Positions 1 through 14,053 of a stretch of 64,000 bases of DNA are shown here, piece after piece. A model generated the notes under the pieces. That model was not told the DNA's origin. It did not search any database and saw only the letters and a list, made by a program, of their open reading frames with translations. The position numbers were made by a program, and so were the translations under genes. How positions within the stretch are numbered: position 1 is the stretch's first letter; each line of letters opens with the position of its first letter. This stretch comes from a virus. The DNA is taken from positions 1 to 64,000 of IMG/VR virus record IMGVR_UViG_3300032242_000488. The stretch is one strand, 5' to 3'.

Positions 1-366
1 GCTCGCGAAGAAGGATTCGAAGATGTTGCCAAGCACTTTGAACACACAGCAGATCAAGAACTGCTACATGCATGGGGCCATTTAGAATTGCTAATCGGCA
101 AGCCATCAACAAAAGAATGTTTGGAAAAAGCCATTGAAGGCGAAACATATGAGTTCACTCAAATGTATCCACAGTTCCAAGCTATTGCTGAACGTGAAGG
201 CGAATTAGAAGCCGCAAAAGAAGCCGCAAGTCAAATTGAAGAATCAAAAGAACATGCCGCACAGTTTGCCGCAGTCTTAGCCAAAGCAGAGAAACGTTTC
301 AATGCTCTTAAGAAAGTTGAAGAACGTCATGCCAATGCATACAAACAAGTTTTGGAGACACTATAA
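1..366 (+). CDS. rubrerythrin (5' truncated by window edge)
   Basis: Frame open from base 1 (AREEGFEDVAKHFEHTADQELLHA...EGETYEFTQMYP...EESKEHA); ExxH di-iron motifs typical of rubrerythrin. Confidence 0.85.
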   Translation, partial: AREEGFEDVAKHFEHTADQELLHAWGHLELLIGKPSTKECLEKAIEGETYEFTQMYPQFQAIAEREGELEAAKEAASQIEESKEHAAQFAAVLAKAEKRFNALKKVEERHANAYKQVLETL

Positions 367-503
367 TGAACGATCAAGTATATATCTGTGTAGTCTGCGG
401 ACACGAACACAATGAAGAACTAGAAGGCAAGTGGGATGAATTAGATGAGTCCTTTACTTGTCCCGAGTGCGGTTGCGGTAAAGACGAATACGAGGCATTC
501 TGA
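366..503 (+). CDS. rubredoxin (45 aa, not in ORF track)
   Basis: MNDQVYICVVCGHEH...FTCPECGCGKDEYEAF; two CxxCG motifs; start overlaps the rubrerythrin stop. Confidence 0.85.
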   Translation: MNDQVYICVVCGHEHNEELEGKWDELDESFTCPECGCGKDEYEAF

Positions 504-898
504 TGTTAGACTGCCTAATACTCGGTGATTCAATCGCAGTGGGAACTGCACATTTTCGTCCGGAATGTGCTGTCTATGCTAAAAGCGGTATCAACAGCCA
601 CAACTGGTTGAACAAGAACGTAGACAAAAATCTAACTGCAAAAAGTGTTATCATTAGTCTTGGATCAAATGATCACAAAGGTGTAAAAACGTTTCACGAG
701 TTAATGGCAATTCGTCAGCTAACTGATGCAGGTAGGGTCTATTGGGTTCTACCTGCAAACAAACCGGAAGTACAAGAGATAGTTGAAATTATTGCTAAAA
801 ACTTTGGTGATACAATACTGCCTATTACTAGTCTAAGCAAAGACGGTGTACATCCTACAACTGCCGGATACAAAGAATTAGCGGAAAAATCCAGATAA
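503..898 (+). CDS. SGNH/GDSL-like hydrolase
   Basis: GDSIA, LGSND and DGVHP blocks. Confidence 0.8.
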   Translation: MLDCLILGDSIAVGTAHFRPECAVYAKSGINSHNWLNKNVDKNLTAKSVIISLGSNDHKGVKTFHELMAIRQLTDAGRVYWVLPANKPEVQEIVEIIAKNFGDTILPITSLSKDGVHPTTAGYKELAEKSR

Positions 899-905
899 AT
901 ACTGG

Positions 906-1454
906 ATGAAACAATATAACTTTGAAGATTACTTTTCTACAGTAACGATTCCCGAAACTTGGGAAACTTTGGACGAATTTATTGAATGGTTTATGGATTC
1001 CAGAATGCCATGGATGATTCCCGAAGACTCAGAAGTTTATGTTACTGACAACGCTAGTTCTATCATATTGTTTAGACACGATCGCTATCAAGTAGAACTA
1101 TATGTTAACTATCCCAAAAGTCATGTACCTTTGCACGGACACCCGGGCTTAGATGTAGCTACTATGCAAATTGGTAGAATGAATCCCATTCAATGGGGTA
1201 ATGCGGGCAAAGTATTAAAAAGTGGTAAAAAACATACTGCTAACCTAGCTAGTGAAAAAGGCACTGTGTTTTTAACATTTGAAAAGTGGCTACCAGGAAT
1301 ACCAATGACTGGAGCTTCAGTTCAATGGAGCGGAACTACAGTTGGGCCAATACACAGTGAATTAATTAAACGCCATTTTCCTAATGTAGAAATAATTAAC
1401 GGAGTTTCTAATTTAACTATTGAAATGATTCAGAAAACAGACCACAATGCCTGA
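906..1454 (+). CDS. hypothetical protein, possible cupin fold
   Basis: VPLHGHP motif; TAAATA at 896-901 just upstream. Confidence 0.5.
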   Translation: MKQYNFEDYFSTVTIPETWETLDEFIEWFMDSRMPWMIPEDSEVYVTDNASSIILFRHDRYQVELYVNYPKSHVPLHGHPGLDVATMQIGRMNPIQWGNAGKVLKSGKKHTANLASEKGTVFLTFEKWLPGIPMTGASVQWSGTTVGPIHSELIKRHFPNVEIINGVSNLTIEMIQKTDHNA

Positions 1455-1466
1455 ATTAAAAAAAAT

Positions 1467-2609
1467 ATGGAACTCTTTGACCCACATTCAAATGAATGGC
1501 TGTTAAACAAATTTAAAATATATAAAGACCTACAATCTAGAGATACGGCATATTATAGCAAAAAATATAAGATGTACGTCATCACTAGATATGAAGATGT
1601 TGTATATGCCCTAACGAACCCTGACTTGTTTATATCCGGTCAAGGAAATTTGATAGTTGAAGACCCCCGTAGATTTGGCCGGACCCTGGGTGCAAGTGAT
1701 AATCCTACTCACGATATATTAAAAAATATTGTAAAAAATGCATACGCAAAGCATAATTTAGAACGGATCTCATCGTTGTATAGGGAAAAAGTTAGAAACG
1801 AACTTTCCAACAAAACCTTAATAAATTTATCAGAAGTGGCTGATCAAACTACAGCATGGGCAATTGCAGAACTACTTAATTTACCGTATCCCAAAGAATA
1901 TATTAAAAATTTAGTAATAGATATACAACGACATGCGCCTCAGTGTGTTATGTATAACCAGAAAGCTGAATTGTTTGAAAAGTTGATGAAGATAGTAGAT
2001 CGTGCTATTAGTACAAATCAACCTGCTCAGGGTCCTGGAATGTATGAAGAGTACGTATTAGCAAACAGACTAAATCACCGGAATGGCCTATCGTTATTTA
2101 CTGGACCTACTATATCTGGTGCTAGCTCTATGACCGGTGCTATAGAATTTATGATATTAGATTTGTTTAGAGAAAATAAGTATCAAGATGTTTTAAATGA
2201 CCCGTCCCTAATTCCAAACGCAGTAACTGAATCTTTAAGATTTAATGCATCCACTGGACGATTTAGAAGGACAGTTAGCAATCCTATTAGACTACATGGT
2301 ATAGATTTATTAGCTGGTGACGCTGTAGCGTTATGTTATGATGCGGCCAATCGAGACTCGACAAAATGGGACAACCCTGATATGTTTGATTTAACTAGAA
2401 ATAATACTGGTATGGCATTTGGCCATGGATTGCATGCCTGCATTGCTCTATATTTTAGCAAATCACTTATGTCGGTCTTCTTAGAAGAGTTTATAAATAT
2501 AGTAGGGGCATATAAAGTTATTACAAAACACGAAGACTTGCAGTATGTAATAACTGCTAGCGGTAATGACGATATGATCTCAAATATCTATATAGAAAAA
2601 ATAAACTAA
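1467..2609 (+). CDS. cytochrome P450
   Basis: ExxR (ESLR), AANRD and heme-ligand motif FGHGLHACIA. Confidence 0.9.
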   Translation: MELFDPHSNEWLLNKFKIYKDLQSRDTAYYSKKYKMYVITRYEDVVYALTNPDLFISGQGNLIVEDPRRFGRTLGASDNPTHDILKNIVKNAYAKHNLERISSLYREKVRNELSNKTLINLSEVADQTTAWAIAELLNLPYPKEYIKNLVIDIQRHAPQCVMYNQKAELFEKLMKIVDRAISTNQPAQGPGMYEEYVLANRLNHRNGLSLFTGPTISGASSMTGAIEFMILDLFRENKYQDVLNDPSLIPNAVTESLRFNASTGRFRRTVSNPIRLHGIDLLAGDAVALCYDAANRDSTKWDNPDMFDLTRNNTGMAFGHGLHACIALYFSKSLMSVFLEEFINIVGAYKVITKHEDLQYVITASGNDDMISNIYIEKIN

Positions 2610-2716
2610 AATGTCTAAGATCCCTACAATCAAGCCCAATATACAAAAAACTAAACAAGTAGACCCACGTAAAACATACCATGGAATAATCCCTGTGGTT
2701 ATAATAGGAAAAAAGA

Positions 2717-3082
2717 ATGTTAACACCAATAATTAATATAGGTTTAGTAGCTAATATGTTTGTGAGACAAATGCACTTTAAAGAAGCCGGGGCATCTGAA
2801 CAGGGACATGCACACACATTTGATCATCTAACTTTATTAGCAAGCGGAAAATTGCAAGTAGAAGCAAACGGTGAGATTACAGAATATACTGCACCTACCA
2901 TGATTTACATTAATTCAGAAGTAGAGCATAAGTTGACGGCACTAGAACCTGAAACTGTAGCCTATTGCATACACGGCCTTCGAGACCTTGATAAGTCGGA
3001 TGATATTATTAGTCCGGACATGATTCCAAATGGTGTAGTTTATAAAAAATTAGCCGGGCAAGTGCTCGCAACTGGAGAATAA
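2717..3082 (+). CDS. cupin-domain protein
   Basis: GHAHTFDHLTLLASG...EHKL cupin motifs. Confidence 0.7.
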   Translation: MLTPIINIGLVANMFVRQMHFKEAGASEQGHAHTFDHLTLLASGKLQVEANGEITEYTAPTMIYINSEVEHKLTALEPETVAYCIHGLRDLDKSDDIISPDMIPNGVVYKKLAGQVLATGE

Positions 3083-3083
3083 T

Positions 3084-3338
3084 ATGTCTGTTACAATTAT
3101 AGTAAATTGGGCTAGCGTTAATGATAAAATAGACGGTCTCGAATTTGCTGCCGAACGCAAGGCCAAATTAGAATTAATGTATACGGAAGGTAAACTTATA
3201 GGATTTAAGCAAAATGATTTATCTGCCAAGGTATCGCTGACTTTTAACACTCAGTCGGACGCTGAAGAATGGAAAACATTTATCCAAGACCTTGCTACTA
3301 GATACAACAAAACCATTTTGTCTATTGTCACTATATAA
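3084..3338 (+). CDS. hypothetical protein
   Basis: GGAG RBS, coupled to upstream gene. Confidence 0.6.
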   Translation: MSVTIIVNWASVNDKIDGLEFAAERKAKLELMYTEGKLIGFKQNDLSAKVSLTFNTQSDAEEWKTFIQDLATRYNKTILSIVTI

Positions 3339-3370
3339 CCCTTCATTTTGGCCGGATATCGCCAGAGGTC

Positions 3371-3399
3371 TTGACAACGAGACTAAATAAAACTATAAT
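3371..3399 (+). promoter_or_regulatory. sigma70 promoter
   Basis: TTGACA-N17-TATAAT, perfect consensus. Confidence 0.85.
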
Positions 3400-3471
3400 A
3401 GAGTCATGTCAACAAAAGCTAGCGGCATCCGACTGTTGTAGAAATACAACAAACAAGATAGCCAAAAGTGG

Positions 3472-3500
3472 TTGACACAAGTGCAGAAAGGCACTATAAT
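3472..3500 (+). promoter_or_regulatory. sigma70 promoter driving leader and tRNA array
   Basis: TTGACA-N17-TATAAT, perfect consensus. Confidence 0.85.
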
Positions 3501-3557
3501 TAACACATGAACTAGCAATTCCGCTAGTAAATTTAAAAGGTTTAAAAGAGAAACAAA

Positions 3558-3707
3558 ATGCAATCGTTTAACAGACAACAATGTACGAAACATTCGATAG
3601 CCCAGGTGGGAGGCTTTATGCCCTCTTATTGGCTGGCGATTAATAGTACAAGTCTATCAAATGATCGTTTACCAGAGATTCAAAGGGTCCGGAGGACTGT
3701 CGTGTAA
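3558..3707 (+). CDS. putative attenuator leader peptide (49 aa)
   Basis: MQSFNRQQCTKHSIAQVGGFMPSYWLAINSTSLSNDRLPEIQRVRRTVV; all 20 amino acids; 3' end overlaps antiterminator strand AGGGTCC. Confidence 0.65.
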   Translation: MQSFNRQQCTKHSIAQVGGFMPSYWLAINSTSLSNDRLPEIQRVRRTVV

Positions 3708-3736
3708 CATACAAGTTAACACAACAAACTTCAAGG

Positions 3737-3771
3737 ACCCTAGGATTAAAACCCTGGGGTTTTTTGTTTTT
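3737..3771 (+). terminator. intrinsic terminator (attenuator)
   Basis: ACCCTAGG/CCTGGGGT stem followed by TTTTTGTTTTT; 5' arm can alternatively pair with 3684-3690. Confidence 0.8.
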
Positions 3772-3784
3772 AAGGAAAGGAAAA

Positions 3785-3961
3785 ATGAAAGAGATAGATC
3801 ATACAAAATTAAATGAACGTATTGTTGAACAGGCTTATGAAGCCGCTCTTAGTAATACTCTTACTAAAGAACAGCTTCAAAAACTTATTCAAGATAAGTT
3901 TGAACGTGCTAGAGTGTATCGCGAAGCAATGGCAAAAATGCCAACGTTTAGCGTAAACTAA
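3785..3961 (+). CDS. hypothetical protein (58 aa)
   Basis: AAGGAAAGGA RBS before ATG 3785. Confidence 0.6.
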   Translation: MKEIDHTKLNERIVEQAYEAALSNTLTKEQLQKLIQDKFERARVYREAMAKMPTFSVN

Positions 3962-4158
3962 AGTACAACGTGTGAAGATACCAGTAACGAGGACTGGGCC
4001 CTGCACGTAAAACATGGGGCGAACGGGCGGCCTACCGGATGGATTATCCTTGTGTGGATAAAAAAATGGTAGCGTATTAAAGCATTCTCAGGCCTTCGGG
4101 CAAGTGGGTTCATCCATGAAGAGTGCTTTAATACACACATTCTAAAGAGTGTGTTAAT

Positions 4159-4245
4159 GGAGGTTGTTCCCTATTGCCGGCTGTAACCCGGTAGGCATAA
4201 TAAGTAGGGTGGCGCCAAGTGGTTCGATTCCATCAACCTCCACCA
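4159..4245 (+). tRNA. non-canonical tRNA-Tyr(GTA)-like RNA
   Basis: 8-bp acceptor, 4-bp T stem, TTCGATT loop, CTGTAAC anticodon loop, CCA; no D arm. Confidence 0.6.
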
Positions 4246-4250
4246 AATTT

Positions 4251-4324
4251 CCTCTTGTAGTTAAATGGTATAACAGTCGGCTGATAACCGGCCATTACAA
4301 GTTCGATTCTTGTCGAGAGGACCA
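4251..4324 (+). tRNA. tRNA-Ile(GAT)
   Basis: Cloverleaf, loop CTGATAA, CCA. Confidence 0.9.
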
Positions 4325-4328
4325 AGTT

Positions 4329-4386
4329 TAGGATACTAACAGCAAATCTTAATCAACTTTCAAATGGTGAAAAAGAATGTATCCTG
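4329..4386 (+). ncRNA. ACAGCAA-scaffold RNA copy 1 (Glu-UUC loop)
   Basis: TAGGATAC/GTATCCTG stem, ACAGCAA, internal ATCAA-CTTTCAA-ATGGT. Confidence 0.75.
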
Positions 4387-4395
4387 TTTAATTAT

Positions 4396-4470
4396 ACTCC
4401 GGTCGTCTAGTGGCTAGGACGCCAGCCTTTCAAGTTGGAGAAGCGGGATCGAAACCCGTTCGGAGTACCA
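4396..4470 (+). tRNA. tRNA-Glu(TTC)
   Basis: Cloverleaf, loop CTTTCAA, variant T-loop ATCGAAA, CCA. Confidence 0.9.
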
Positions 4471-4474
4471 ATAT

Positions 4475-4549
4475 GCCGTTGTAGCTCTCTGGGAGGGTAA
4501 CTGATTGTCTATCAGATTTAGGCGAGTTCGATTCTCGTCAGCGGCGCCA
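4475..4549 (+). tRNA. tRNA-Asp(GTC), divergent
   Basis: Cloverleaf, loop TTGTCTA (pyrimidine at 37), CCA. Confidence 0.8.
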
Positions 4550-4555
4550 ATCTAT

Positions 4556-4634
4556 TCCGTGAAATCCAAGCATGGTGCAAGGACCTGACTGTTAATCAGT
4601 GATTAGGTGAGTTCGATCCTCACACACGGAGCCA
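4556..4634 (+). tRNA. tRNA-Asn(GTT), divergent
   Basis: Loop CTGTTAA, T arm, GCCA end. Confidence 0.8.
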
Positions 4635-4643
4635 ATACAATTT

Positions 4644-4718
4644 GGGGGCAGTAGCGGGCTACGGTTCTCCCTTGCAAGGAGGATGTCTAGAAGGGTTCAA
4701 CTCCCTCGGTCTCCACCA
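4644..4718 (+). tRNA. tRNA-Ala(TGC), divergent with reduced D loop
   Basis: G3:U70 pair, loop CTTGCAA, CCA. Confidence 0.75.
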
Positions 4719-4724
4719 AATTAT

Positions 4725-4800
4725 CTCGCATTCGGTTAGCGGCTATGCCACCTGGTTTGGGGCCAGGAGTTCGAAGGTTCGAGTCCTTCATGCGAGACCA
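4725..4800 (+). tRNA. tRNA-Pro(TGG)
   Basis: Cloverleaf, loop TTTGGGG, CCA. Confidence 0.85.
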
Positions 4801-4806
4801 AGTTAA

Positions 4807-4880
4807 GCCCTATTAGTTAAATGGTAGAACACCTGTTTTGTAATCAGGGGATGGCAGTTCGATTCTGTCATGGGGCACCA
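4807..4880 (+). tRNA. tRNA-Thr(TGT)
   Basis: Cloverleaf, loop TTTGTAA, CCA. Confidence 0.88.
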
Positions 4881-4883
4881 GTT

Positions 4884-4944
4884 TAGGATAGTAACAGCAA
4901 ATTAAAAAATCTTTTCTTGAAAAAAAGCCAAAAATGCTATCCTG
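4884..4944 (+). ncRNA. ACAGCAA-scaffold RNA copy 2 (Ser-UGA loop)
   Basis: TAGGATAGTA/TGCTATCCTG stem, ACAGCAA, internal CTTTT-CTTGAAA-AAAAG. Confidence 0.78.
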
Positions 4945-4973
4945 TTTTATTTTAATGTTCAAAGGAGAACGAC

Positions 4974-4994
4974 ATGAAACGTGCTAAACGTTAG
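4974..4994 (+). CDS. minigene MKRAKR
   Basis: AAAGGAG RBS at 4961-4967, ATG AAA CGT GCT AAA CGT TAG, followed by a strong hairpin. Confidence 0.4.
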   Translation: MKRAKR

Positions 4995-5056
4995 TGTCAT
5001 CCTAGACCCCCGTATGGTCCTGGATGGCACGTAAAAGAAAATCAATTACGAATCAT

Positions 5057-5132
5057 CCACAGCTGGCGTTAACGGTAGCGTACTCGGCTCTTAACCGATG
5101 AGGTGTCAGTTCAAATCTGACGCTGTGGACCA
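5057..5132 (+). tRNA. tRNA-Lys(CTT)
   Basis: Cloverleaf, loop CTCTTAA, CCA. Confidence 0.9.
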
Positions 5133-5135
5133 TAT

Positions 5136-5210
5136 GGGGGTATAACTTAACGGCTAAAGTAGTAGGCTTTTAACCTATTAATCAGAGTTCGATTCTCTGT
5201 GCCCCTACCA
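5136..5210 (+). tRNA. tRNA-Lys(TTT)
   Basis: Cloverleaf, loop CTTTTAA, CCA. Confidence 0.9.
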
Positions 5211-5296
5211 TATGAAAACATATTCGATACGGACATAGTCTGTGTGAGGCAAGATCACCTTCCTTTGACGAGAACGATCCGAGTGTGTTTCCATAT

Positions 5297-5371
5297 GGTA
5301 ATGTAGGACAATGGTAGTCTTCCTCCTTCATACGGAGAGTGTTACTGGTTCAAATCCAGTCATTACCACCA
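5297..5371 (+). tRNA. tRNA-Met/Ile2(CAT)
   Basis: Cloverleaf, loop TTCATAC, CCA; Met versus lysidine-Ile identity not resolved. Confidence 0.8.
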
Positions 5372-5376
5372 ATCAT

Positions 5377-5450
5377 GTATCCCTAGTGTAATGGCAGCAT
5401 TACAGTCTCCAAAACTGTCGGTCGGGGTTCGAGTCCCTGGGGGTACGCCA
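5377..5450 (+). tRNA. tRNA-Trp(CCA)
   Basis: Cloverleaf, loop CTCCAAA, GCCA. Confidence 0.9.
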
Positions 5451-5454
5451 TTTT

Positions 5455-5518
5455 AAGGATGTTAACAGCAAAAATTTATACATTGAACTTTTAATTCAAA
5501 CCGTAAAAATACATCCTG
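5455..5518 (+). ncRNA. ACAGCAA-scaffold RNA copy 3 (Lys-UUU loop)
   Basis: AGGATGT/ACATCCT stem, ACAGCAA, internal TTGAA-CTTTTAA-TTCAA. Confidence 0.78.
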
Positions 5519-5527
5519 TTTTTTTGT

Positions 5528-5601
5528 TCCCGGATAGTGTAGTGGTAACACAACAGACTTTGACTCTGCTATTGTAAGTTCGATTCTTACTCCGGGTGCC
5601 A
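5528..5601 (+). tRNA. tRNA-Gln(TTG)
   Basis: Cloverleaf, loop CTTTGAC, GCCA. Confidence 0.9.
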
Positions 5602-5607
5602 CATAAT

Positions 5608-5684
5608 CGGTCCTTAACTCAGCGGATTAGAGTGTCAGTCTTCGAAACTGAAGGTCGGGAGTTCGAATCTCTCAGGGCCGGCCA
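5608..5684 (+). tRNA. tRNA-Arg(TCG)
   Basis: Cloverleaf, loop CTTCGAA, CCA. Confidence 0.9.
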
Positions 5685-5690
5685 AAATTT

Positions 5691-5765
5691 ATCGCCATAG
5701 TATAATGAATAATACACTACGCTACGAACGTGGGAATAGAGGTTTGATTCCTTTTGGCGGTACCA
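5691..5765 (+). tRNA. tRNA-Arg(ACG)
   Basis: Cloverleaf, loop CTACGAA, T-loop TTTGATT, CCA. Confidence 0.85.
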
Positions 5766-5910
5766 ATGTTGTATCTAACACAAAGTCTGTGTTAATTTTT
5801 TGATATGTAGGTGTAAATGTTTTAACAGTGGTCCAGCAAGCGGGCGATTTATATTTGGTATCGGCCAACTGATCATATAAATTTTTTACAGCTTCTTCAA
5901 CAGTTATCAT
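5722..5910 (-). CDS. small hypothetical protein antisense to tRNA array
   Basis: TATAAATA late-type motif at 5916-5923 on minus strand; 3' end overlaps tRNA-Arg(ACG). Confidence 0.45.
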   Translation of the reverse strand: MITVEEAVKNLYDQLADTKYKSPACWTTVKTFTPTYQKINTDFVLDTTLVPPKGIKPLFPRS

Positions 5911-5922
5911 AATATTATTTAT

Positions 5923-5997
5923 AGTTCCTTAGCGTAGTGGTAGCGCAACACCTTGACATGGTGTGGGTCACTGGTTCGATCCCAGTAGGAACTACCA
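5923..5997 (+). tRNA. tRNA-Val(GAC)
   Basis: Cloverleaf, loop TTGACAT, CCA. Confidence 0.9.
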
Positions 5998-6010
5998 AGA
6001 CTTATTAGGT

Positions 6011-6081
6011 GTGGCCATAGTGTAATGGTAGCACTACATGTTGTGACCTTGTCAGTACGGGTTCAAATCCCGTTGGTCACC
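6011..6081 (+). tRNA. tRNA-His(GTG)
   Basis: Cloverleaf, loop TTGTGAC, C73; CCA not encoded; flanked by inverted repeat ACTTATTAGG/CCTAATAAGT. Confidence 0.82.
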
Positions 6082-6096
6082 CCTAATAAGTTTTTT

Positions 6097-6172
6097 GCCG
6101 CTTTAGCTGATGTGGTCATAGCACCGGTTTGAAGCACCGAGGAACCAGGTTCGATCCCTGGGGGCGGCACCA
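6097..6172 (+). tRNA. tRNA-Phe(GAA)
   Basis: Cloverleaf, loop TTGAAGC, CCA. Confidence 0.88.
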
Positions 6173-6212
6173 AGTTTTGTAGTAATGCAAATTTAAAAAC
6201 TTAAATATATGC

Positions 6213-6890
6213 ATGACTTTATATTTTCCTCAAGCAGATGCTACGTATGTACACATACCCAAAACCGGCGGAACAATGATGCGGGTTTGGGGGGAATTTA
6301 ATATTCCCGATAAAATGACAGAAGGTGTTTGTTTTAGATATCCAGGTACCACCGTTAATCGTCACTGGCAGTTAAACAAAATTAAAGAAGTTTGGCCAGA
6401 CCCTGGAACAGTTTTTACTTTTGTAAGAAATCCCTATGATAGATTAGTTAGCCAATTCCATTGGGTAGGCCAAGCCGCAAAGAAACGACTAAAAGAAAAA
6501 TATGATTACCATTTTGAAAAATCAATTAAATGGGATATTTTAGAATCAAAAAGCTACGACAAAGGATTTGATAGATATGTCAGGGCACTATACAACAAAG
6601 AGTATCACGAAATATGGTTTGACAAATGGCGCTACGAAAACGGATGGACAAGGGCCGATACTCAACTAAGTTGGTTGATCGGTGGTAAGGCCGATATAGT
6701 TATAAAACTAGAAGAAATTGATTCTAAGTTTTATATCATACAGGATCTGCTAGGTTGTAAAGAACCATTCCTAACGGCGCTTAATGCTAGCGAACACGAT
6801 CACTATTCTACATACTATACTGCGGAGACTAAAAAAATGGTCTCTGAAATGTTTAAAGAAGATCTAGATACATTTAATTACGATTTCTAG
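6213..6890 (+). CDS. sulfotransferase family protein
   Basis: HIPKTGGT (5'-PSB) and VRNPYDRLVS (3'-PB) PAPS-binding motifs. Confidence 0.85.
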   Translation: MTLYFPQADATYVHIPKTGGTMMRVWGEFNIPDKMTEGVCFRYPGTTVNRHWQLNKIKEVWPDPGTVFTFVRNPYDRLVSQFHWVGQAAKKRLKEKYDYHFEKSIKWDILESKSYDKGFDRYVRALYNKEYHEIWFDKWRYENGWTRADTQLSWLIGGKADIVIKLEEIDSKFYIIQDLLGCKEPFLTALNASEHDHYSTYYTAETKKMVSEMFKEDLDTFNYDF

Positions 6891-6898
6891 TATATAAT

Positions 6899-6975
6899 GC
6901 CCCTGTACGCTAATTGGTAGTGCGGGTAGACTTAAAATCTGCTGGATGGCGGTTCGAATCTGCCTAGGGGTACCA
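6899..6975 (+). tRNA. tRNA-Leu(TAA), short variable arm
   Basis: Loop CTTAAAA, variable region TGGAT, CCA. Confidence 0.85.
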
Positions 6976-6977
6976 GT

Positions 6978-8474
6978 TTATAAACTTAACTTTTTTTGTA
7001 TGTAGTTAGGGATATATTTTTCTGGAAAGTTCCTTTGGTATTGATGTGTCCCATTAAGTTTTAATTTTTCTTGGGTAGACAATGGCATACCATTATTATC
7101 ACATATTATGCCTATAAGTCCATTTCCATTTCCCTGTCCACCAAGTTTGTGCAGATTGTATTTTCCAACTTTTAGTAATAGAGTACAATCATTAGCAATA
7201 GCATCGGCTTCGTATATATTCATGTTATCATTTTCCCAAATGACTCCATCTGATGTGCCGACATTACATTTTTTTAACGGATCGGTGTTAGTGATATCAT
7301 CCATAATTCGATAACCGTATTTTGTAAAGTTTTTAGACAGTTCTGAGCCTCGAGGATCATCTGGATCTTGTATATAAAGAGCGTTCATCATCCATGAATG
7401 GTGGCTCCAATTAGCTTTGATCCACTTTGAAGTTTCTGCTAATGATTCTTTTGTCTCATAAGGTAATCCTGCAATAAGAGATATTTGAGGACGATATTCA
7501 AAACCTGCATGTTTTATAAAATAATTAGATACATCTATTAGGCCTTCTTTCATTTTAGAAACATCCATGCCCTTGCCAATGGCTTTGGCAGACTCTTGAT
7601 TGAAGGTTTCGATGCCATGGAAGTGTGCTAGGACTCTCATCCTTAATAATTCTTCTCTATCCTTAGGACGACTTATTAATAGATCGGCTCTAATATATGC
7701 CCAAAAATAAGGATCGTAGGGCAATGTTTCTACCATGTCTGCAAACTTTGTAACTTTTTCTGTGCTATCATTAAACGTGTCGTCAACGATAGCATAATCC
7801 TTCATTCCAAAGTGTTCATAATTGTATAGTAGCTGTTCTTTAATGCTATCTGCATTAGAGGTATAATCGCCTCTTACACCAAGAATAGGATAGTTGCAAA
7901 ATTTACAAGCAAATTTACAACCTCTGCTCATTTCAACTGTGCCAAATTCGTTCGGTAAAATAAAATCTCTATTTTGAAATTTTACAATAGGGCTTCGAAA
8001 TGGGTACGACTCATGAGCGTGTAGAGCATTGATAATTTTAGTATGACTGTTAACTACAGAAAGATCAAACTTAGGCCTGGTGCCGTTACTGAATAGATAT
8101 TTTAATAATACATCTAACGCATTTTCGCCGTAGCCTGCTATATGATAATCAACAAGTGGGTTATTACTAATTGGAGCTTGCCCGCCAGTTATCGTAACAA
8201 TGTGAGGCCATTTAATTTTAACATACGCAAGGATGACATTCATTGTATCTATAGCAGATGATCTATTAAATAAAAGTGAGATCCCGATAAATTTAGTGTT
8301 TGATGTTATTCTTGAATCAATAAGACTATAGAGTTGTTCGTTCGTAAAATACACAGTAAAATCGACTACTTCTACATCCCAAGATTGTTCTCTTAAATGT
8401 GATGCAATTCTGTGGGAACCTGCGCTTCTTTCTTTAAGACCGGCACAAACTGAAAAGATGATTGCATGATTCAT
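6978..8474 (-). CDS. radical SAM protein, B12-binding-like N-terminus
   Basis: CKFACKFC motif, DDTFN, GIETFN, LIAGLPYET; start moved to MNHAII after TATAAATA at 8479-8486. Confidence 0.85.
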   Translation of the reverse strand: MNHAIIFSVCAGLKERSAGSHRIASHLREQSWDVEVVDFTVYFTNEQLYSLIDSRITSNTKFIGISLLFNRSSAIDTMNVILAYVKIKWPHIVTITGGQAPISNNPLVDYHIAGYGENALDVLLKYLFSNGTRPKFDLSVVNSHTKIINALHAHESYPFRSPIVKFQNRDFILPNEFGTVEMSRGCKFACKFCNYPILGVRGDYTSNADSIKEQLLYNYEHFGMKDYAIVDDTFNDSTEKVTKFADMVETLPYDPYFWAYIRADLLISRPKDREELLRMRVLAHFHGIETFNQESAKAIGKGMDVSKMKEGLIDVSNYFIKHAGFEYRPQISLIAGLPYETKESLAETSKWIKANWSHHSWMMNALYIQDPDDPRGSELSKNFTKYGYRIMDDITNTDPLKKCNVGTSDGVIWENDNMNIYEADAIANDCTLLLKVGKYNLHKLGGQGNGNGLIGIICDNNGMPLSTQEKLKLNGTHQYQRNFPEKYIPNYIQKKLSL

Positions 8475-8541
8475 ACTATATTTATAGTTAAGAGTTGACC
8501 CTAAAAAATTTAAGTACACTAAGATAATAGAAATAAATATA

Positions 8542-9495
8542 ATGTTACCAATAAGGCCTAACATGAAAAAGAAACTCTGCTTAGTATATCAACTGTTTAC
8601 AAAGTGCAATATAGGTTGCAAGTACTGTTATAATTATTTTGATCAGGATGTACTTCCCTTCAATTATTATACATCCAAAGTTGGTAAACTTTTAGAATTA
8701 TACCATGATGAAACTTGTTTTGTTTTGAATGGCGGTGAGCCCTTGTTGCTTAAAGGATTTCAACATCTAGTAAATCAAGCGACTGAAAAAGCAAAAACAT
8801 ATACCTATACTAATGGTACTCTAAGTACATTGCACTATAAGAGATTTATTGATAGTCTTGAGCACAAAGACAAATTTTATATGACAATCAGTTTACACTG
8901 TATGGAAGTGCTAAGAGATAATAAATTACCTGAGAAGTACTTTAAAAATATTGAAGTTTTTGCTAAGAATATTCCCAACTTAAAAATCAACCTAGTAGTT
9001 GATGAAGAGTTTCAAGGTGAATACTTACAGGTAATTAGACAAACTATGAGAGAAATTAAACAAAAAACTTCTCTCAAATATGTTAATATTCTAATCGCTG
9101 ATCATATGTATGAAGATGAATTTAAACTATTGCGTTTGTTAAATCAAGATTTTATTGACTTTGTTGAAGAAATTGATAGCAATTTTACTTATAAAAATTG
9201 CATGTGGGACAATACTAGACAGTCATTAACAGAAATGATCAAAGACATAAAAGAAAATATCGTGTTAAAGTTAGCCGGAAAGGATTTCAAAATTCCATAT
9301 GAATATGAATTTGGACAAATATTTTTCTTAGAAAGTCCCGAAGGAATGATTATTCAGGAATTTTTAGGTGACGGACGTCAAGAACATAAAATACCGTTTG
9401 ATCAATTTGACGCATTTGTTGAAGATATCAAACCAAAAGTACAAAGCAAGCCTCTTAGAAAAATTACAACATTATCGTCTGTTGGAATAATCTAA
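8542..9495 (+). CDS. radical SAM protein
   Basis: CNIGCKYC, GGEPLL, TNG motifs; true start may be 8563. Confidence 0.85.
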   Translation: MLPIRPNMKKKLCLVYQLFTKCNIGCKYCYNYFDQDVLPFNYYTSKVGKLLELYHDETCFVLNGGEPLLLKGFQHLVNQATEKAKTYTYTNGTLSTLHYKRFIDSLEHKDKFYMTISLHCMEVLRDNKLPEKYFKNIEVFAKNIPNLKINLVVDEEFQGEYLQVIRQTMREIKQKTSLKYVNILIADHMYEDEFKLLRLLNQDFIDFVEEIDSNFTYKNCMWDNTRQSLTEMIKDIKENIVLKLAGKDFKIPYEYEFGQIFFLESPEGMIIQEFLGDGRQEHKIPFDQFDAFVEDIKPKVQSKPLRKITTLSSVGII

Positions 9496-9657
9496 TCACA
9501 AGTTGTTGATAAAGCGAAGTGCTTTGTTGACATTAGTAAAGTATCGCACAGTTAGTTCTATATCGTAGATATCACGAACCATAACGATACACACTCCCTC
9601 ATACAATGATAGATGAAAGTGCAATCCTGCAGGGGTAACGCTTTCGTATGTCTTCAT
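9496..9657 (-). CDS. small hypothetical protein (53 aa, not in ORF track)
   Basis: MKTYESVTPAGLHFHLSLYEGVCIVMVRDIYDIELTVRYFTNVNKALRFINNL; TAAATA upstream on minus strand. Confidence 0.5.
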   Translation of the reverse strand: MKTYESVTPAGLHFHLSLYEGVCIVMVRDIYDIELTVRYFTNVNKALRFINNL

Positions 9658-9667
9658 ATTAATATTT

Positions 9668-9742
9668 ACCGCTTTCGTTCAATGGACAGGACATGATTCT
9701 TCTAAATTCATAATAGTGGTTCGATTCCACTAGGCGGTGCCA
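9668..9742 (+). tRNA. tRNA-Arg(TCT)
   Basis: Loop CTTCTAA, A20, GCCA. Confidence 0.85.
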
Positions 9743-9746
9743 ATAT

Positions 9747-9820
9747 GCTCTTATAGTTTAATGGTAGAACACTCGCTTGGTATGCGAGCAATGGTAGTTC
9801 GATTCTACCTTGGAGCACCA
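9747..9820 (+). tRNA. tRNA-Thr(GGT)
   Basis: Loop TTGGTAT, CCA. Confidence 0.9.
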
Positions 9821-9821
9821 T

Positions 9822-9899
9822 GCCCCCTTAGCCCAATTGGTATGAGGCGTCTCTCTCAAAAGGAGAATCGTGTCGGTTCGAGTCCGACAGGGGGTACCA
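9822..9899 (+). tRNA. tRNA-Leu(CAA), short variable arm
   Basis: Loop CTCAAAA, variable region ATCGT, CCA. Confidence 0.85.
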
Positions 9900-9920
9900 A
9901 TATAATAAGTAAATGACAAT

Positions 9921-10010
9921 GGAAATGTGGCAGAGTCCGGTTTATTGCAACAGTCTTGAAAACTGTCGATCAGAAATGGTCCGTGAGTTCGAATCTCACC
10001 GTTTCCGCCA
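9921..10010 (+). tRNA. tRNA-Ser(TGA)
   Basis: Class II cloverleaf, loop CTTGAAA, GCCA. Confidence 0.93.
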
Positions 10011-10027
10011 ATAATCAAAAAAATATG

Positions 10028-10056
10028 TTGACAATGTCACAAAGTGATGTTATAAT
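10028..10056 (+). promoter_or_regulatory. sigma70 promoter
   Basis: TTGACA-N17-TATAAT. Confidence 0.85.
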
Positions 10057-10081
10057 ACATACATGTTAAGAAATTAACATA

Positions 10082-10093
10082 CGTTCTTTAAAA
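10082..10093 (+). promoter_or_regulatory. boxA-like antitermination site
   Basis: CGTTCTTTAAAA resembles rrn boxA TGCTCTTTAACA; lies in the leader of the tRNA operon. Confidence 0.55.
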
Positions 10094-10115
10094 ATTAATT
10101 ACAAGTAAAACTTGT

Positions 10116-10200
10116 GGACAGGTGGGTGAGTGGTTAATACCAGCAGACTGTAAATCTGCCCTCTTAGAGTACGATGGTTCGAATCCGTCCCTGTCCACCA
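10116..10200 (+). tRNA. tRNA-Tyr(GTA)
   Basis: Canonical class II, loop CTGTAAA, CCA. Confidence 0.93.
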
Positions 10201-10234
10201 TATTAAAGCATATTCTGCGAGTGTGTTTTAATAT

Positions 10235-10324
10235 GGAGCGGTGGCCGAACGGTAAGGCAGCGGATTGCTAATCCGTAGACTCATGAAAGTGGGTCACTGG
10301 GTTCGACTCCCAGTCGCTCCGCCA
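10235..10324 (+). tRNA. tRNA-Ser(GCT)
   Basis: Class II, loop TTGCTAA, GCCA. Confidence 0.93.
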
Positions 10325-10329
10325 TATTT

Positions 10330-10406
10330 GGAGTAGTAGCGCAGTTGGTTAGCGCACTGGCCTGTCACGCCGGGGGTCGCGGGTTCGAGTCCCGTCTACT
10401 CCGCCA
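10330..10406 (+). tRNA. tRNA-Asp(GTC)
   Basis: Canonical, loop CTGTCAC, GCCA. Confidence 0.95.
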
Positions 10407-10423
10407 GATATAGCAGACGGTAG

Positions 10424-10452
10424 TTGACAGCTACTAAATATTCTGCTATAAT
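10424..10452 (+). promoter_or_regulatory. sigma70 promoter
   Basis: TTGACA-N17-TATAAT. Confidence 0.8.
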
Positions 10453-10460
10453 AGTTATTT

Positions 10461-10535
10461 GCCGGATTAGCTCAGTGGTAGAGCAACCGCCTTGTAAGCG
10501 GTAGGTCGTCAGTTCAATCCCGACATCCGGCACCA
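10461..10535 (+). tRNA. tRNA-Thr(TGT)
   Basis: Canonical, loop CTTGTAA, CCA. Confidence 0.93.
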
Positions 10536-10544
10536 AAAGTTTTT

Positions 10545-10628
10545 GCCCTGGTGGTGGAATGGTAGACACGATGGTCTTAGAAGCCATTGTCGAAAGGCGT
10601 GGGAGTTCGAGTCTCCCCTGGGGCACCA
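10545..10628 (+). tRNA. tRNA-Leu(TAG)
   Basis: Class II, loop CTTAGAA, CCA. Confidence 0.93.
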
Positions 10629-10635
10629 TTTAGTT

Positions 10636-10709
10636 GCGGGATTAGTTTAATGGTAAAACAGCAGATTTCCAATCTTCGGTCAAGAGTTCGATTCTCTTAT
10701 CCCGCTCCA
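10636..10709 (+). tRNA. tRNA-Gly(TCC)
   Basis: Loop TTTCCAA, TCCA. Confidence 0.92.
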
Positions 10710-10733
10710 TAGTTTAATAACGTAAAGGTATAT

Positions 10734-10964
10734 ATGAGTAAACCAATCGGTCTTAGTCGCGGTCCAGAAATTGACACAGATTTATGTGTTGCTAACATTG
10801 GCAATAGATACAATCTTGTACTAGTAGCCGCACATCGCGCAAAGGAAATCAAGCGTCAACATAAAGACAGTGACAAGCGTGAACATGTTCACAGCAACAT
10901 CACAGCGTTACTTGAAATCCAAGCAGGCAAGGTTGGTGTTGACTATCTGAAGAGAATTAAATAA
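10734..10964 (+). CDS. rpoZ: RNA polymerase omega subunit homolog
   Basis: NRYNLVLVAAHRAKEI and ALLEIQAGKV match the omega consensus (NRFDLVLVAARRARQ...ALREIEEG). Confidence 0.8.
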   Translation: MSKPIGLSRGPEIDTDLCVANIGNRYNLVLVAAHRAKEIKRQHKDSDKREHVHSNITALLEIQAGKVGVDYLKRIK

Positions 10965-10967
10965 TTT

Positions 10968-11044
<77 letters not shown>

Positions 11045-11050
11045 ATATTT

Positions 11051-11125
11051 GCCTGGTTAGCTCAGGGGTAGAGCAACGCCTTTACACGGCGAAGGTCCGC
11101 GGTTCGAAACCGTGACCAGGTACCA
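11051..11125 (+). tRNA. tRNA-Val(TAC)
   Basis: Loop TTTACAC, CCA. Confidence 0.92.
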
Positions 11126-11143
11126 AATAACAAAAAGGAAAAT

Positions 11144-11374
11144 ATGTTAAAACCAAATAAGACGTTTAGGTTAAGTAAGACAGCAAAACGTATGATAGCA
11201 TTGATGAAAGGTTCTACAGCAGAACAACGTAATCAATACAAACGTATGATGATTCAGGCAGAGTTAGCGGCGGCTATTGTAGTCAAGCCAACTAAGACTG
11301 ATCGTAATGCGCCCCGTGGAACAGCTACTGGTACTACCGGTAGTCATGCTTACACAACACCAAGCGCAGAATAA
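11144..11374 (+). CDS. basic hypothetical protein
   Basis: AAGGA RBS; fills the gap between two tRNAs. Confidence 0.6.
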   Translation: MLKPNKTFRLSKTAKRMIALMKGSTAEQRNQYKRMMIQAELAAAIVVKPTKTDRNAPRGTATGTTGSHAYTTPSAE

Positions 11375-11381
11375 GATTTAT

Positions 11382-11457
11382 TCCCCAATAGCTCAGTCGG
11401 TAGAGTAGCAGACTGTTAATCTGTTGGTCCGTGGTTCGAGCCCACGTTGGGGAGCCA
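11382..11457 (+). tRNA. tRNA-Asn(GTT)
   Basis: Canonical, loop CTGTTAA, GCCA. Confidence 0.95.
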
Positions 11458-11465
11458 GATAATTT

Positions 11466-11541
11466 GGGGGTTTAGCTCAGTTGGGAGAGCGTTTGCTTTG
11501 CAAGCAAAATGTCGCAGGTTCGATCCCTGTAACCTCCACCA
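11466..11541 (+). tRNA. tRNA-Ala(TGC)
   Basis: Canonical, G3:U70, loop TTTGCAA. Confidence 0.95.
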
Positions 11542-11548
11542 AATATAT

Positions 11549-11624
11549 GCGGGAGTAGCTCAGTTGGTAGAGCATTACCTTGCCAAGGTAAATGTCGCGA
11601 GTTCGAACCTCGTCTCCCGCTCCA
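11549..11624 (+). tRNA. tRNA-Gly(GCC)
   Basis: Canonical, loop TTGCCAA, TCCA. Confidence 0.95.
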
Positions 11625-11630
11625 GAATAT

Positions 11631-11705
11631 GGAGCCATCGTCTATCGGTTAGGACATCAGGTTTTCATCCTGAGAAGAGGGGTTCGACTCCCCTTGGCTC
11701 TTCCA
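11631..11705 (+). tRNA. tRNA-Glu(TTC)
   Basis: Loop TTTTCAT, CCA. Confidence 0.9.
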
Positions 11706-11849
11706 GTTTTGTTTATGTGTGTACGGTTACCCATATGTGAGTAGCGAGTCGCCCAAGACACTTGTTACTGTACCTGATGCCCGTAGCAGACTTACGTCGA
11801 GTAAGTTCAGCAAGTAGCTTGGACACTACAAGCGATAAACAAATTCATT

Positions 11850-11941
11850 GCCAGCGAGACTTGACAGTCAGAGAGGTTTTATAAACCTTTTAGCGCCAGA
11901 TTAGCGTTCTTGAGAGGGTTTGATTCCCTCCGCTGGTACCA
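11850..11941 (+). tRNA. non-canonical tRNA with TAT anticodon (Ile-like)
   Basis: 7-bp acceptor, tiny D arm GACT-TGAC-AGTC, loop TTTATAA, long variable arm, T-loop TTTGATT, CCA. Confidence 0.6.
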
Positions 11942-11945
11942 GTTT

Positions 11946-12058
11946 TAGGATAGATGACAGCAAACCCTAGCGGCTAATACCCGCATCCAAAGGACCGGGG
12001 GAACCCAGTCGAGCATGTTCGCTAATCATGTAGAAAAAATCGGCAAAAGCCTATCCTG
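11946..12058 (+). ncRNA. ACAGCAA-scaffold RNA copy 4
   Basis: TAGGATAG/CTATCCTG stem, ACAGCAA, three internal hairpins. Confidence 0.72.
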
Positions 12059-12502
12059 TTAAAACCCCGTCTACACTTCTACGTTAAGGAAGTGCGTAAT
12101 TACAGTGACGATAACTGTACGGTGCATTGGATCTACCGCAAGGCCCATTTAAGGCGACTTGAAAAATCACAAAGGCGGGGACGTTTCCCGTCTAGATGGA
12201 AAAAGAACGTGGACAGAGTAACCGCTCAGTTTAGGGCTCATGTGGTGTGAGTAGCTAGACACTTTATTAAAGCAAACTAGAATCTGTAAAAAGATCAGGT
12301 TTGGTATCCCAGAAGCTCTTTGACATAGTCATAACTTTTAATACACCTTAGTTTGTTTTAATAAAGTAATTTTATACGTGCTCTTTGAGTAGCTACAGTG
12401 GAACACCGAAATACCGGTCAATGTCGACCATGTACCGGGACCGGCCATGAAGAGAGGGGCTACCGCGAATTCAAGCGTCACAGAGAGCACCTATAAAGTT
12501 AT

Positions 12503-12578
12503 CGCGGGGAGGGTCCGGTCACCAGCGTGGTCTCATAAGCCATTGCCATCCTTGGTTCAAATCCAAGCCCCGCAACCA
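12503..12578 (+). tRNA. initiator-like tRNA-fMet(CAT), divergent
   Basis: CGCGGGG acceptor with C1:A72 mismatch, loop CTCATAA, CCA. Confidence 0.8.
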
Positions 12579-12831
12579 TTTTTATCAGTAAGGAACTTAG
12601 GGTATCGGGAGTCCGTAATGGGAAGCATAAAAGGTCGGAAGCCTTTAATGTTTGATGATTATAAATCATACTCCAGCCGGGTGGTAGATCAGGACATACA
12701 GTCCGGGCGATCTTCAAAAGCAGTTGATACTCCATGTTTGCTAGACCAGTAGAGCGCGACTGTATGCCGCGGGTAGCCAAGTCTGACTTTCGTCGACCAA
12801 AACTCTCCAAGTTCCTTTCTAATAAAAATAT

Positions 12832-12909
12832 GCAACGGTGGCAGAGTGGCCCAATGCAACGGATTGCAAATCCGTAAAACCGTCAGTTCAAATCTGACCC
12901 GTTGCTCCA
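12832..12909 (+). tRNA. tRNA-Cys(GCA)
   Basis: Loop TTGCAAA, U73, CCA. Confidence 0.92.
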
Positions 12910-12970
12910 TTTAAAGCTGATTTTAACAAAAAAAGATAAGTACGTATATAACACACGGAGTAGCGAAATC

Positions 12971-13405
12971 ATGATTAAATTCATTAGGGATCTTTCTAAT
13001 AGTCTTTTAGAATATATTAAAGATGATCCGGTCCGACCGAATCTATCAGTTGACTTTAGAGTTAGTGACGGCCGAATGGTTATTGCCTTAATGGATGAAG
13101 AAACGCCTGCCGCAATGGTATGTGTTAGCCTACATGACTTTATTCCGGCGAGTGTAGAAGAACTTGCTACTACAGCAATGGAACCCACTACAGCTATATT
13201 CTATACTATTTGGAGTTATAGAGCTGGTAGTGGTAGAGATCTGTTATTCAAATCAGTAGAAGCTCTTAAGAAAGATTATCCAACACTCAACCGTTTTGTT
13301 ACACTAAGTCCAAAGACTGAAATGGCAAAGAAATTCCATCACAAAAACGGTGCTCAAACATTCCGTGAAAACGAAGATACCATTAACTATGAGTATCATA
13401 TCTAA
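12971..13405 (+). CDS. hypothetical protein, GNAT/malonyl-CoA decarboxylase-like fold
   Basis: TAIFYTIWS and FVTLSP motifs resemble the MCD C-terminal domain; start moved out of tRNA-Cys. Confidence 0.5.
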   Translation: MIKFIRDLSNSLLEYIKDDPVRPNLSVDFRVSDGRMVIALMDEETPAAMVCVSLHDFIPASVEELATTAMEPTTAIFYTIWSYRAGSGRDLLFKSVEALKKDYPTLNRFVTLSPKTEMAKKFHHKNGAQTFRENEDTINYEYHI

Positions 13406-13414
13406 ACTTCGGAC

Positions 13415-13443
13415 TTGACCTTTTGCATTAAAGAACGTATAAT
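13415..13443 (+). promoter_or_regulatory. sigma70 promoter
   Basis: TTGACC-N17-TATAAT. Confidence 0.7.
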
Positions 13444-13449
13444 AAGTAC

Positions 13450-13550
13450 GTGGTCGTAAGCAAATAGGCAAAGCTCCAATCCAGAAATGGTGAGGGACGG
13501 GACTAGGCTATTAGCCGTCTTTGTAGGTTCAAGCCCTACCGACCACACCA
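13450..13550 (+). tRNA. tRNA-like RNA (Leu-like, degenerate anticodon arm)
   Basis: Perfect acceptor GTGGTCG/CGACCAC, Leu-type D loop, T arm, CCA; 101 nt. Confidence 0.5.
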
Positions 13551-13567
13551 AATATAAAGGAAGCCGT

Positions 13568-13711
13568 ATGTCAAAACCAGACGAAGTATTGCAAAAAGCA
13601 TACGGCAGTATGCCAAAAGAAGTTGGCTACTCTATAGATTGGGATTTTATCCCCACCTGGAGAGGCGTCAAATATTACTGGTATATTCTGGTAAGAAAAC
13701 TCACACGATAA
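13568..13711 (+). CDS. small hypothetical protein
   Basis: AAAGGA RBS, MSKPDEVLQK... Confidence 0.5.
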   Translation: MSKPDEVLQKAYGSMPKEVGYSIDWDFIPTWRGVKYYWYILVRKLTR

Positions 13712-13712
13712 A

Positions 13713-13787
13713 CTCCCGGTAGTTCAATGGATAGAACCACTCTCTCCTAAAGAGTAAATGTGGGTTCGATTCCCGCCCAGGAGACCA
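13713..13787 (+). tRNA. tRNA-Arg(CCT)
   Basis: Loop CTCCTAA, CCA. Confidence 0.9.
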
Positions 13788-13819
13788 AAATTTATTTTGT
13801 ACAGGTTGTCCAAAATAGA

Positions 13820-14046: not shown

Positions 14047-14053
14047 TTAGTCA

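Follow-up and report, generated by a model that had tools for sequence, protein, structure and literature searches.

The DNA analyzed here, referred to as the window, comprised the initial 64 kb of an uncultured virus record of 167.5 kb with an estimated completeness of 46%, and no match to this virus was found when a collection of cultured phages was searched at the DNA and protein levels. The window carried 37 tRNA genes at 4251–13787, which jointly covered all 20 amino acids. Auxiliary genes encoding a cytochrome P450, a cupin, and a sulfotransferase flanked and interrupted the tRNA region (1467–3082 and 6213–9495), and the same stretches encoded two radical-SAM enzymes, one of them B12-binding and located on the minus strand. 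In addition, the plus strand contained two giant ORFs, one of 3577 aa at 33720–44453 and one of 4736 aa at 48275–62485. The region ahead of the tRNA genes was composed of the following features.

3371–3399, plus strand: promoter P1, TTGACA-17-TATAAT, 12 of 12 consensus positions matched
3435–3450, plus strand: hairpin GTTGTA-GAAA-TACAAC between P1 and P2, a single match in the window
3472–3500, plus strand: proximal promoter P2, TTGACA-17-TATAAT, 12 of 12 consensus positions matched
3511–3528, plus strand: predicted hairpin near the 5' end of the P2 transcript
3546–3551, plus strand: weak purine-rich Shine-Dalgarno-like AAGAGA, 6 nt ahead of the ATG
3558–3707, plus strand: leader ORF with an ATG start, 49 codons, and all 20 amino acids
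3684–3695, plus strand: putative antiterminator 5' strand, AGGGTCC then GAGG, inside the last codons of the ORF
3697–3725, plus strand: inner antiterminator hairpin, including the stop codon TAA (3705–3707)
3729–3741, plus strand: putative antiterminator 3' strand, CTTC..GGACCCT, its last 5 nt being the start of the terminator 5' arm
3737–3771, plus strand: intrinsic terminator, 8-bp stem, 8-nt loop, and T6GT5
3785–3961, plus strand: gene of a 58-aa protein, the first gene presumed to be regulated, with the RBS AAGGAAAGGA at 3772–3781
4159–6172, plus strand: first tRNA block, a Tyr-like tRNA (4159–4245) followed by 16 tRNAs

The initial annotation had described two perfect promoters, a 49-codon ORF with a weak RBS, and a terminator, and these elements were recovered. 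Both promoters matched the consensus completely, the ORF began 57 nt past P2, and its RBS was only Shine-Dalgarno-like. The counts of 20 amino acids and 37 distinct codons were reproduced, and each of the Arg, Ser, Thr, Leu, and Ile codons that had been listed was found in the ORF. The leader was free of codon runs, with every amino acid present and many present exactly once. Moreover, it engaged 29 of the 31 phage anticodon species, 25 of those within codons 1–40. The full 20-residue set was already contained in these 40 codons, and codons 41–49 encoded the antiterminator 5' strand. The terminator stem was formed by 3737–3744 pairing with 3753–3760, and the reported complementarity between the 3' end of the ORF and the terminator 5' arm was confirmed as pairing of 3684–3695 with 3729–3741. 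The terminator had also been placed just before the tRNA array; it does precede the array, but not directly, as the 58-aa gene and approximately 200 nt intervene.

All 20 residues are expected in 1.7% of random 49-mers with the phage amino-acid composition, and 2 of 400 small ORFs in this genome contained them. Thus, the window ORF alone was mildly unusual and constituted weak evidence, and the decisive signal was the comparison with relatives. The other all-20 small ORF of the genome (G000:C1:88206–88373, 55 aa) showed no match to the covariance model of the candidate switch described below and, being outside such a context, is probably a product of chance.

Conservation of the module in freshwater relatives

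Relatives were gathered using the 58-aa protein as an anchor, which yielded 45 viral contigs and 71 metagenome contigs, and all 116 originated from lake or other freshwater samples. The module consisting of promoter, ORF, terminator, and 58-aa gene was present in all 116 loci, and wherever a checked locus extended far enough downstream, the module was found at the head of the tRNA array. When five genome records, including a 96%-complete genome of 356 kb, were searched with the covariance model, one copy of the switch was found per record, and each match was at the head of the tRNA array. Further copies in front of other tRNA blocks of the window genome were sought and rejected, as none were found. 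In several relatives, a permuted tmRNA was observed 0.3–3 kb upstream of the leader module (L021:1902–2318, L024:2565–2981, L026:3229–3655, L042:1049–1447, and L048:1630–2061); these relatives consequently carry a ribosome-rescue RNA adjoining the tRNA region.

The promoters were similarly conserved. A promoter matching at least 10 of 12 positions with a 17-nt spacer preceded the leader ORF in every relative, the mean match being 11.5 of 12, and tandem promoters (two or three, each matching at least 11 of 12 and approximately 80–100 nt apart) were found in 53 of 74 relatives. A hairpin like that at 3435–3450 was located directly upstream of a promoter in L044, L046, and L053. The stem of the 3511–3528 hairpin varied in sequence among the relatives, with pairing retained as judged by eye. 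In 14 of 78 relatives, distributed over several lineages, a 5' UTR was absent and the ATG was positioned 6–10 nt past the -10 box. The placement of the ATG at the predicted transcript start in these 14 distinct leaders is, as far as can be read from sequence, the signature of a leaderless mRNA.

Antiterminator and terminator helices

The core of the antiterminator 5' strand corresponded to codons 43–46 of the window leader, with a weaker extension back to 3672. When paired, the antiterminator sequestered 5 nt at the start of the terminator 5' arm, or 7 nt with the peripheral extension. In the minimum-free-energy fold of the whole P2 transcript, the antiterminator was formed and the terminator was absent, and the fold of the leader was 4.7 sd below shuffled controls (z = -4.7). 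The same preference was predicted for the relatives. Among 38 distinct viral-contig sequences, the mean stability was -27 kcal/mol for the antiterminator and -13 kcal/mol for the terminator, and the antiterminator was the minimum-free-energy fold in 36. Furthermore, 4–8 nt of the terminator arm were occupied by the antiterminator in 77 of 77 sequences, and at least 5 nt in 76.

Covariation of the helices was scored on a covariance-model alignment together with an anchor-based analysis; plain MAFFT alignment put the helices out of register. It had been anticipated that relatives would show covarying antiterminator pairs, and indeed both the antiterminator and the terminator helices covaried while sharing nucleotides. 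The covariation score of the antiterminator was 0.208 compared with 0.133 in shuffles, with none of 500 shuffles reaching 0.208, and slid partners gave at most 0.085. The ORF end of a lineage paired with its own terminator flank at -17.4 kcal/mol, compared with -13.9 kcal/mol when combined with flanks of a different core sequence. The inner hairpin was built from other sequences in the relatives and still paired, with changes on both sides in 7 of 8 pairs. In the case of the terminator, 99% of cells were paired and compensatory changes were found in 5 of 8 pairs (0 of 500 shuffles). The fifth nucleotide of the terminator arm, which is shared by both helices, covaried with both partners.

A conserved upstream anti-antiterminator or pause hairpin was also sought in the ORF body, where the consensus structure was weak (-2.25 kcal/mol) and showed little covariation. 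Since no such conserved hairpin was found, the untranslated RNA would be expected to read through. Moreover, as the naked RNA is predicted to prefer the antiterminator, termination should need a ribosome running to the end of the ORF. No Rfam family matched the leader, and no T-box or other cis-regulatory family was detected in 1–15000 at E values up to 1.

Composition and coding of the leader peptide

Among 77 distinct full-length leaders of 34–51 aa, 68 contained all 20 amino acids and the remainder held 18 or 19. In controls from the same loci, the full set was absent from each of the 73 58-aa proteins encoded next to the leaders and present in 4 of the 661 other ORFs with lengths of 34–51 aa. 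The leaders were divided into nine lineages with less than 50% mutual identity, six of which had all-20 members, and all-20 versions of 35 and 38 aa existed, for which the chance expectations are 0.09% and 0.2%. Cys was present exactly once in 37 of 38 leaders, distributed over 13 alignment columns, and His and Tyr were spread over 13 and 12 columns, respectively. On a minimum spanning tree, 101 single-copy positions were changed, and in 95 of these cases the same residue was found elsewhere in the descendant.

The maintenance of the set was further evaluated with an edge test conditioned on each parent, in which the changed residues were redrawn at random. The full set was kept or regained on 31 of the 40 informative edges, namely, those on which the last copy of a residue was hit, compared with approximately 4 expected. 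The corresponding P of about 1e-29 to 1e-34 assumes independence and is too small, because the sequences share kinship. Single-copy positions changed at a rate of 18% and multi-copy positions at 25%. These patterns indicate that the complete 20-amino-acid set is maintained by selection.

Relatives had been expected to keep this diversity in both amino acids and codons. Amino-acid diversity was kept through the relocation of single-copy residues, and the diversity of codons and isoacceptors exceeded that obtained by synonymous resampling. The number of distinct codons per leader was above the resampled values with a mean z of +1.5, both Arg codon boxes were used in 68 of 77 leaders versus 46 expected, and both Leu codon boxes in 69 of 77 versus 55 expected. 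The leaders that fell short of 20 residues might have belonged to phages without the matching tRNA. This explanation was rejected, as the missing residues did not follow the tRNA gaps: the L040 record was without Phe, Lys, Gln, His, Pro, and Val tRNAs and its leader was without Phe only, and the L056 record was without Lys and Phe tRNAs and its leader was without Lys only. Accordingly, the sensor seems to audit decoding overall and not to mirror the array.

The related expectation that the peptide itself would not be conserved was borne out in part. Residues relocated, as expected; yet a pN/pS of 0.4 and the invariant Trp and Asp-Arg, together with the recurrent motif W..IN..LS.DR.PE, pointed to partial conservation. 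Because single-copy positions change less than multi-copy positions, this conservation may be explained by the all-20 constraint itself. The same features would also suit a gene that simply encodes a small protein and ends in its own terminator, in which the long hairpin would act as a 3' stabiliser and the all-20 set would be retained by descent. However, the single-copy residues were almost never lost upon relocation, and all 20 were kept in 35-aa versions with less than 50% identity to the window leader. Searches of Pfam, PHROGs, and NCBIfam gave nothing convincing for the peptide, and the hairpin competes with the terminator and does not simply precede it. Purifying selection on single-copy codons is predicted by the all-20 constraint as well. 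An ordinary small protein is considered an improbable explanation.

Several observations suggest that the ORF is translated. The ATG and the ATG-to-stop frame were kept in every locus, and the indels between relatives were in-frame in codon alignments. The pN/pS of 0.4 applied to the N-terminal and core parts, and a value of 0.8 was obtained for the tail. From these signs in the sequence, we infer translation of the leader ORF. Synonymous change was lower in the ORF core (pS of 0.15) than in the N-terminal part (0.28), which, together with a fold well under the shuffled controls, could also be expected of a small RNA without coding function whose 3' end is set by the terminator, with the ORF being incidental. 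Such an RNA would not account for an open frame that persists in every locus despite heavy divergence, for leaderless forms in which the predicted transcript starts at the ATG, or for a selected amino-acid composition. In addition, the consensus structure of the ORF body was weak, and no Rfam family was matched. It is therefore regarded as very improbable that the locus encodes a non-coding RNA.

The position of the set within the ORF was also informative. The stop codon was inside the antiterminator in every leader, and the core 5' strand started 21–34 nt before the stop in long leaders and 11–12 nt before it in the short families. In 58 of 65 all-20 leaders, the set had been completed 7 nt or more before the start of the antiterminator strand, compared with 11 expected from a random residue order, and roughly nine tail codons contributed no new residue. 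Completion of the set ahead of the antiterminator strand is what a stall sensor needs. This completeness may be partly due to the G+C-rich antiterminator strand, in which rare residues could hardly be encoded. Glu was the usual last-added residue, just 9–11 nt ahead of the antiterminator core, and a stall at Glu may fail to free the antiterminator strand.

Proposed attenuation of the first tRNA block

The locus is best described as a candidate transcription attenuator of the ribosome-mediated type, with a leader peptide that forms a "pangram" by including each of the 20 amino acids; we assign this reading a probability of roughly 70%. Arguments against it are the weak Shine-Dalgarno-like stretch, the lack of a conserved pause or anti-antiterminator hairpin in the ORF body, the closeness of Glu to the antiterminator core, the further promoters past the 58-aa gene and inside the array, and incomplete leaders that do not follow the tRNA gaps of their phages. 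The attenuator interpretation in the initial annotation was supported by the retained diversity, the covarying helices, and the naked RNA favouring the antiterminator, and the selected composition and the competing helices are poorly accounted for by the other explanations considered. In the proposed mechanism, strong tandem sigma-70 promoters would produce transcripts that open with the 49-codon test ORF, and the last nine codons with the next 35 nt would form a long antiterminator hairpin that captures the terminator 5' arm. Smooth translation to the stop codon would melt the antiterminator 5' strand, so that the terminator forms and transcription stops at approximately 3771. If a ribosome were delayed in the first ~40 codons, or never loaded, the antiterminator would form and RNA polymerase would continue through the 58-aa gene to the tRNA genes of the first block. 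These first ~40 codons hold all amino acids and most classes of isoacceptors, so transcription of the tRNAs should increase when any single charged tRNA is scarce or damaged, and restored decoding would shut it off. The outcome would be a negative feedback loop on decoding capacity.

The arrangement downstream of the terminator is consistent with such control. Among the loci checked with sufficient downstream sequence, nearly all had an array starting 190–300 nt past the 58-aa gene, and in two it started approximately 0.9 kb further on. No terminator was found between the 58-aa gene and the first tRNA in the window or in 72 relatives, and no strong promoter was present before the first tRNA in 56 of the 72 or in the window. 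Thus, the first tRNA block would depend on read-through. An extra strong promoter was located past the 58-aa gene in 16 of 72 relatives, and promoters were found inside the array of the window at 10028 and 10424. Given these further promoters, the switch would gate the first block only.

The first tRNA-like gene was at 4159, and the first tRNA called by ARAGORN at 4251. The gene at 4159–4245 was missed by ARAGORN and resembled tRNA-Tyr, with a GUA anticodon arm and an ACCA end; a search of 4158–4242 against Rfam gave only a weak tRNA-Sec-like match. In most relatives, a canonical tRNA-Tyr was the first tRNA at the same distance past the 58-aa gene. The preceding ~200 nt (3962–4158) contained no plausible gene and several G+C-rich hairpins, e.g., GCC-TTCG-GGC near 4092, and matched no Rfam family. 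Within the array, 11850–11941 encoded a tRNA-Ile of 92 nt (anticodon UAU) whose extra arm was long, and this tRNA recurred across the clade (e.g., L012:4472–4563). A tRNA with a four-base anticodon (ttga) was called by ARAGORN at L052:5105–5173, which could represent a miscall or a tRNA resembling frameshift suppressors.

The 58-aa protein was highly conserved, with a mean column identity of 78%, and was modelled as two helices (predicted, pLDDT of 77). Searches of Pfam, PHROGs, and NCBIfam gave nothing convincing for this protein, and neither an Atlas search nor a PDB fold search with its model returned a match. Since it is the first and most conserved downstream gene, the same switch might serve this protein, with the tRNAs as passengers. 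In that case, general translation capacity or transcription-translation coupling would be reported, for example, for the timing of host takeover, and defence would not be the trigger. The promoters that some relatives place before their tRNAs agree with this, as does a leader composition that does not follow the phage tRNA repertoire. However, a sensor of general capacity needs no complete set, yet all 20 amino acids are actively maintained; moreover, the module is always at the head of the tRNA array, without a terminator separating the 58-aa gene from it. We consider this version unlikely.

As for the biological role of the candidate pangram attenuator, it is tentatively suggested, at somewhat less than even odds, that it functions as a universal self-tuning tRNA homeostat and as a counter-defence. 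The leader would then be a test message with which the phage surveys, in a single round of translation, how all amino acids and most isoacceptor classes are decoded. Whenever any tRNA became short, e.g., through cleavage by an anticodon nuclease, the tRNA operon and the 58-aa factor would be turned on, and the system would subsequently reset. The involvement of a host tRNA-cleaving defence as the trigger is a conjecture.

Comparison with known systems and implications

Bacterial rRNA and tRNA operons are driven by tandem P1–P2 promoters and are regulated at initiation by ppGpp/DksA and nucleotide sensing. The phage locus resembles them in that near-consensus tandem promoters approximately 80–100 nt apart drive a stable-RNA operon, and differs in that an attenuator follows the promoters. 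The T-box riboswitch binds one uncharged tRNA directly without a ribosome, and the pheST leader senses Phe only. With T-box and pheST leaders, which control aminoacyl-tRNA synthetase genes, the phage element would share the coupling of the tRNA or charging pool to the read-through of translation-apparatus genes, whereas no T-box match was obtained in the phage leader region.

The trpL, hisL, and pheL leaders and the multivalent ilvGMEDA and thr leaders contain runs of one to three amino acids. These classical leaders of amino-acid operons possess a 1:2 pause or anti-antiterminator hairpin, and their targets are biosynthetic enzymes. Like the trp, his, and ilv leaders, the phage locus comprises a promoter-proximal mini-ORF and mutually exclusive hairpins, with ribosome position proposed to decide between them. 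Unlike these leaders, the phage leader has no runs, contains all 20 residues approximately once each, and is followed by tRNA targets, and no region-1 (1:2) hairpin was found in it.

The closest known system is the whiB7/wblC uORF attenuator of Actinobacteria, in which the amino acids of the uORF set which starvations are sensed (bioRxiv 10.1101/2023.06.02.543512). In that system, a stall anywhere in the uORF leads to read-through, and loss of the start codon raises expression (bioRxiv 10.1101/2023.06.02.543512). The whiB7 uORF of M. smegmatis contains 19 of the 20 amino acids, and uORF composition varies by species, is Ala-enriched, and is not fixed at all 20 (bioRxiv 10.1101/2023.06.02.543512). 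Similar to whiB7, the phage leader is a long uORF of mixed composition (34–51 codons) before an antiterminator/terminator pair, and read-through is predicted as the default, the antiterminator being approximately twice as stable as the terminator. The target is different, as whiB7 is a bacterial transcription factor and the phage leader precedes a 58-aa helical protein and then tRNA genes. No sequence relationship between the two was indicated, the phage leader being without an Rfam match; the two would work alike without belonging to one family. A full-text literature search, which was not exhaustive, returned no account of such an element or of such control of tRNA genes.

Leader-peptide attenuation is textbook knowledge, but the examples described so far respond to one or a few amino acids, their targets being enzymes or regulators. 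Here, a full 20-amino-acid set is kept by selection in a mini-ORF of 35–51 codons before tRNA genes. To our knowledge, no earlier case of tRNA genes under ribosome-mediated attenuation exists, and the present locus, if the mechanism holds, would be the first. Because the promoters are of the E. coli consensus type and the element is only ~300 nt, the mechanism is directly testable. If the mechanism holds, the element would also provide a compact and portable readout of how well any given amino acid is decoded. Phage tRNAs are increasingly linked to escape from tRNA-targeting defences, and the proposed attenuation, if true, would explain how the tRNA arrays of tRNA-rich giant phages are regulated.
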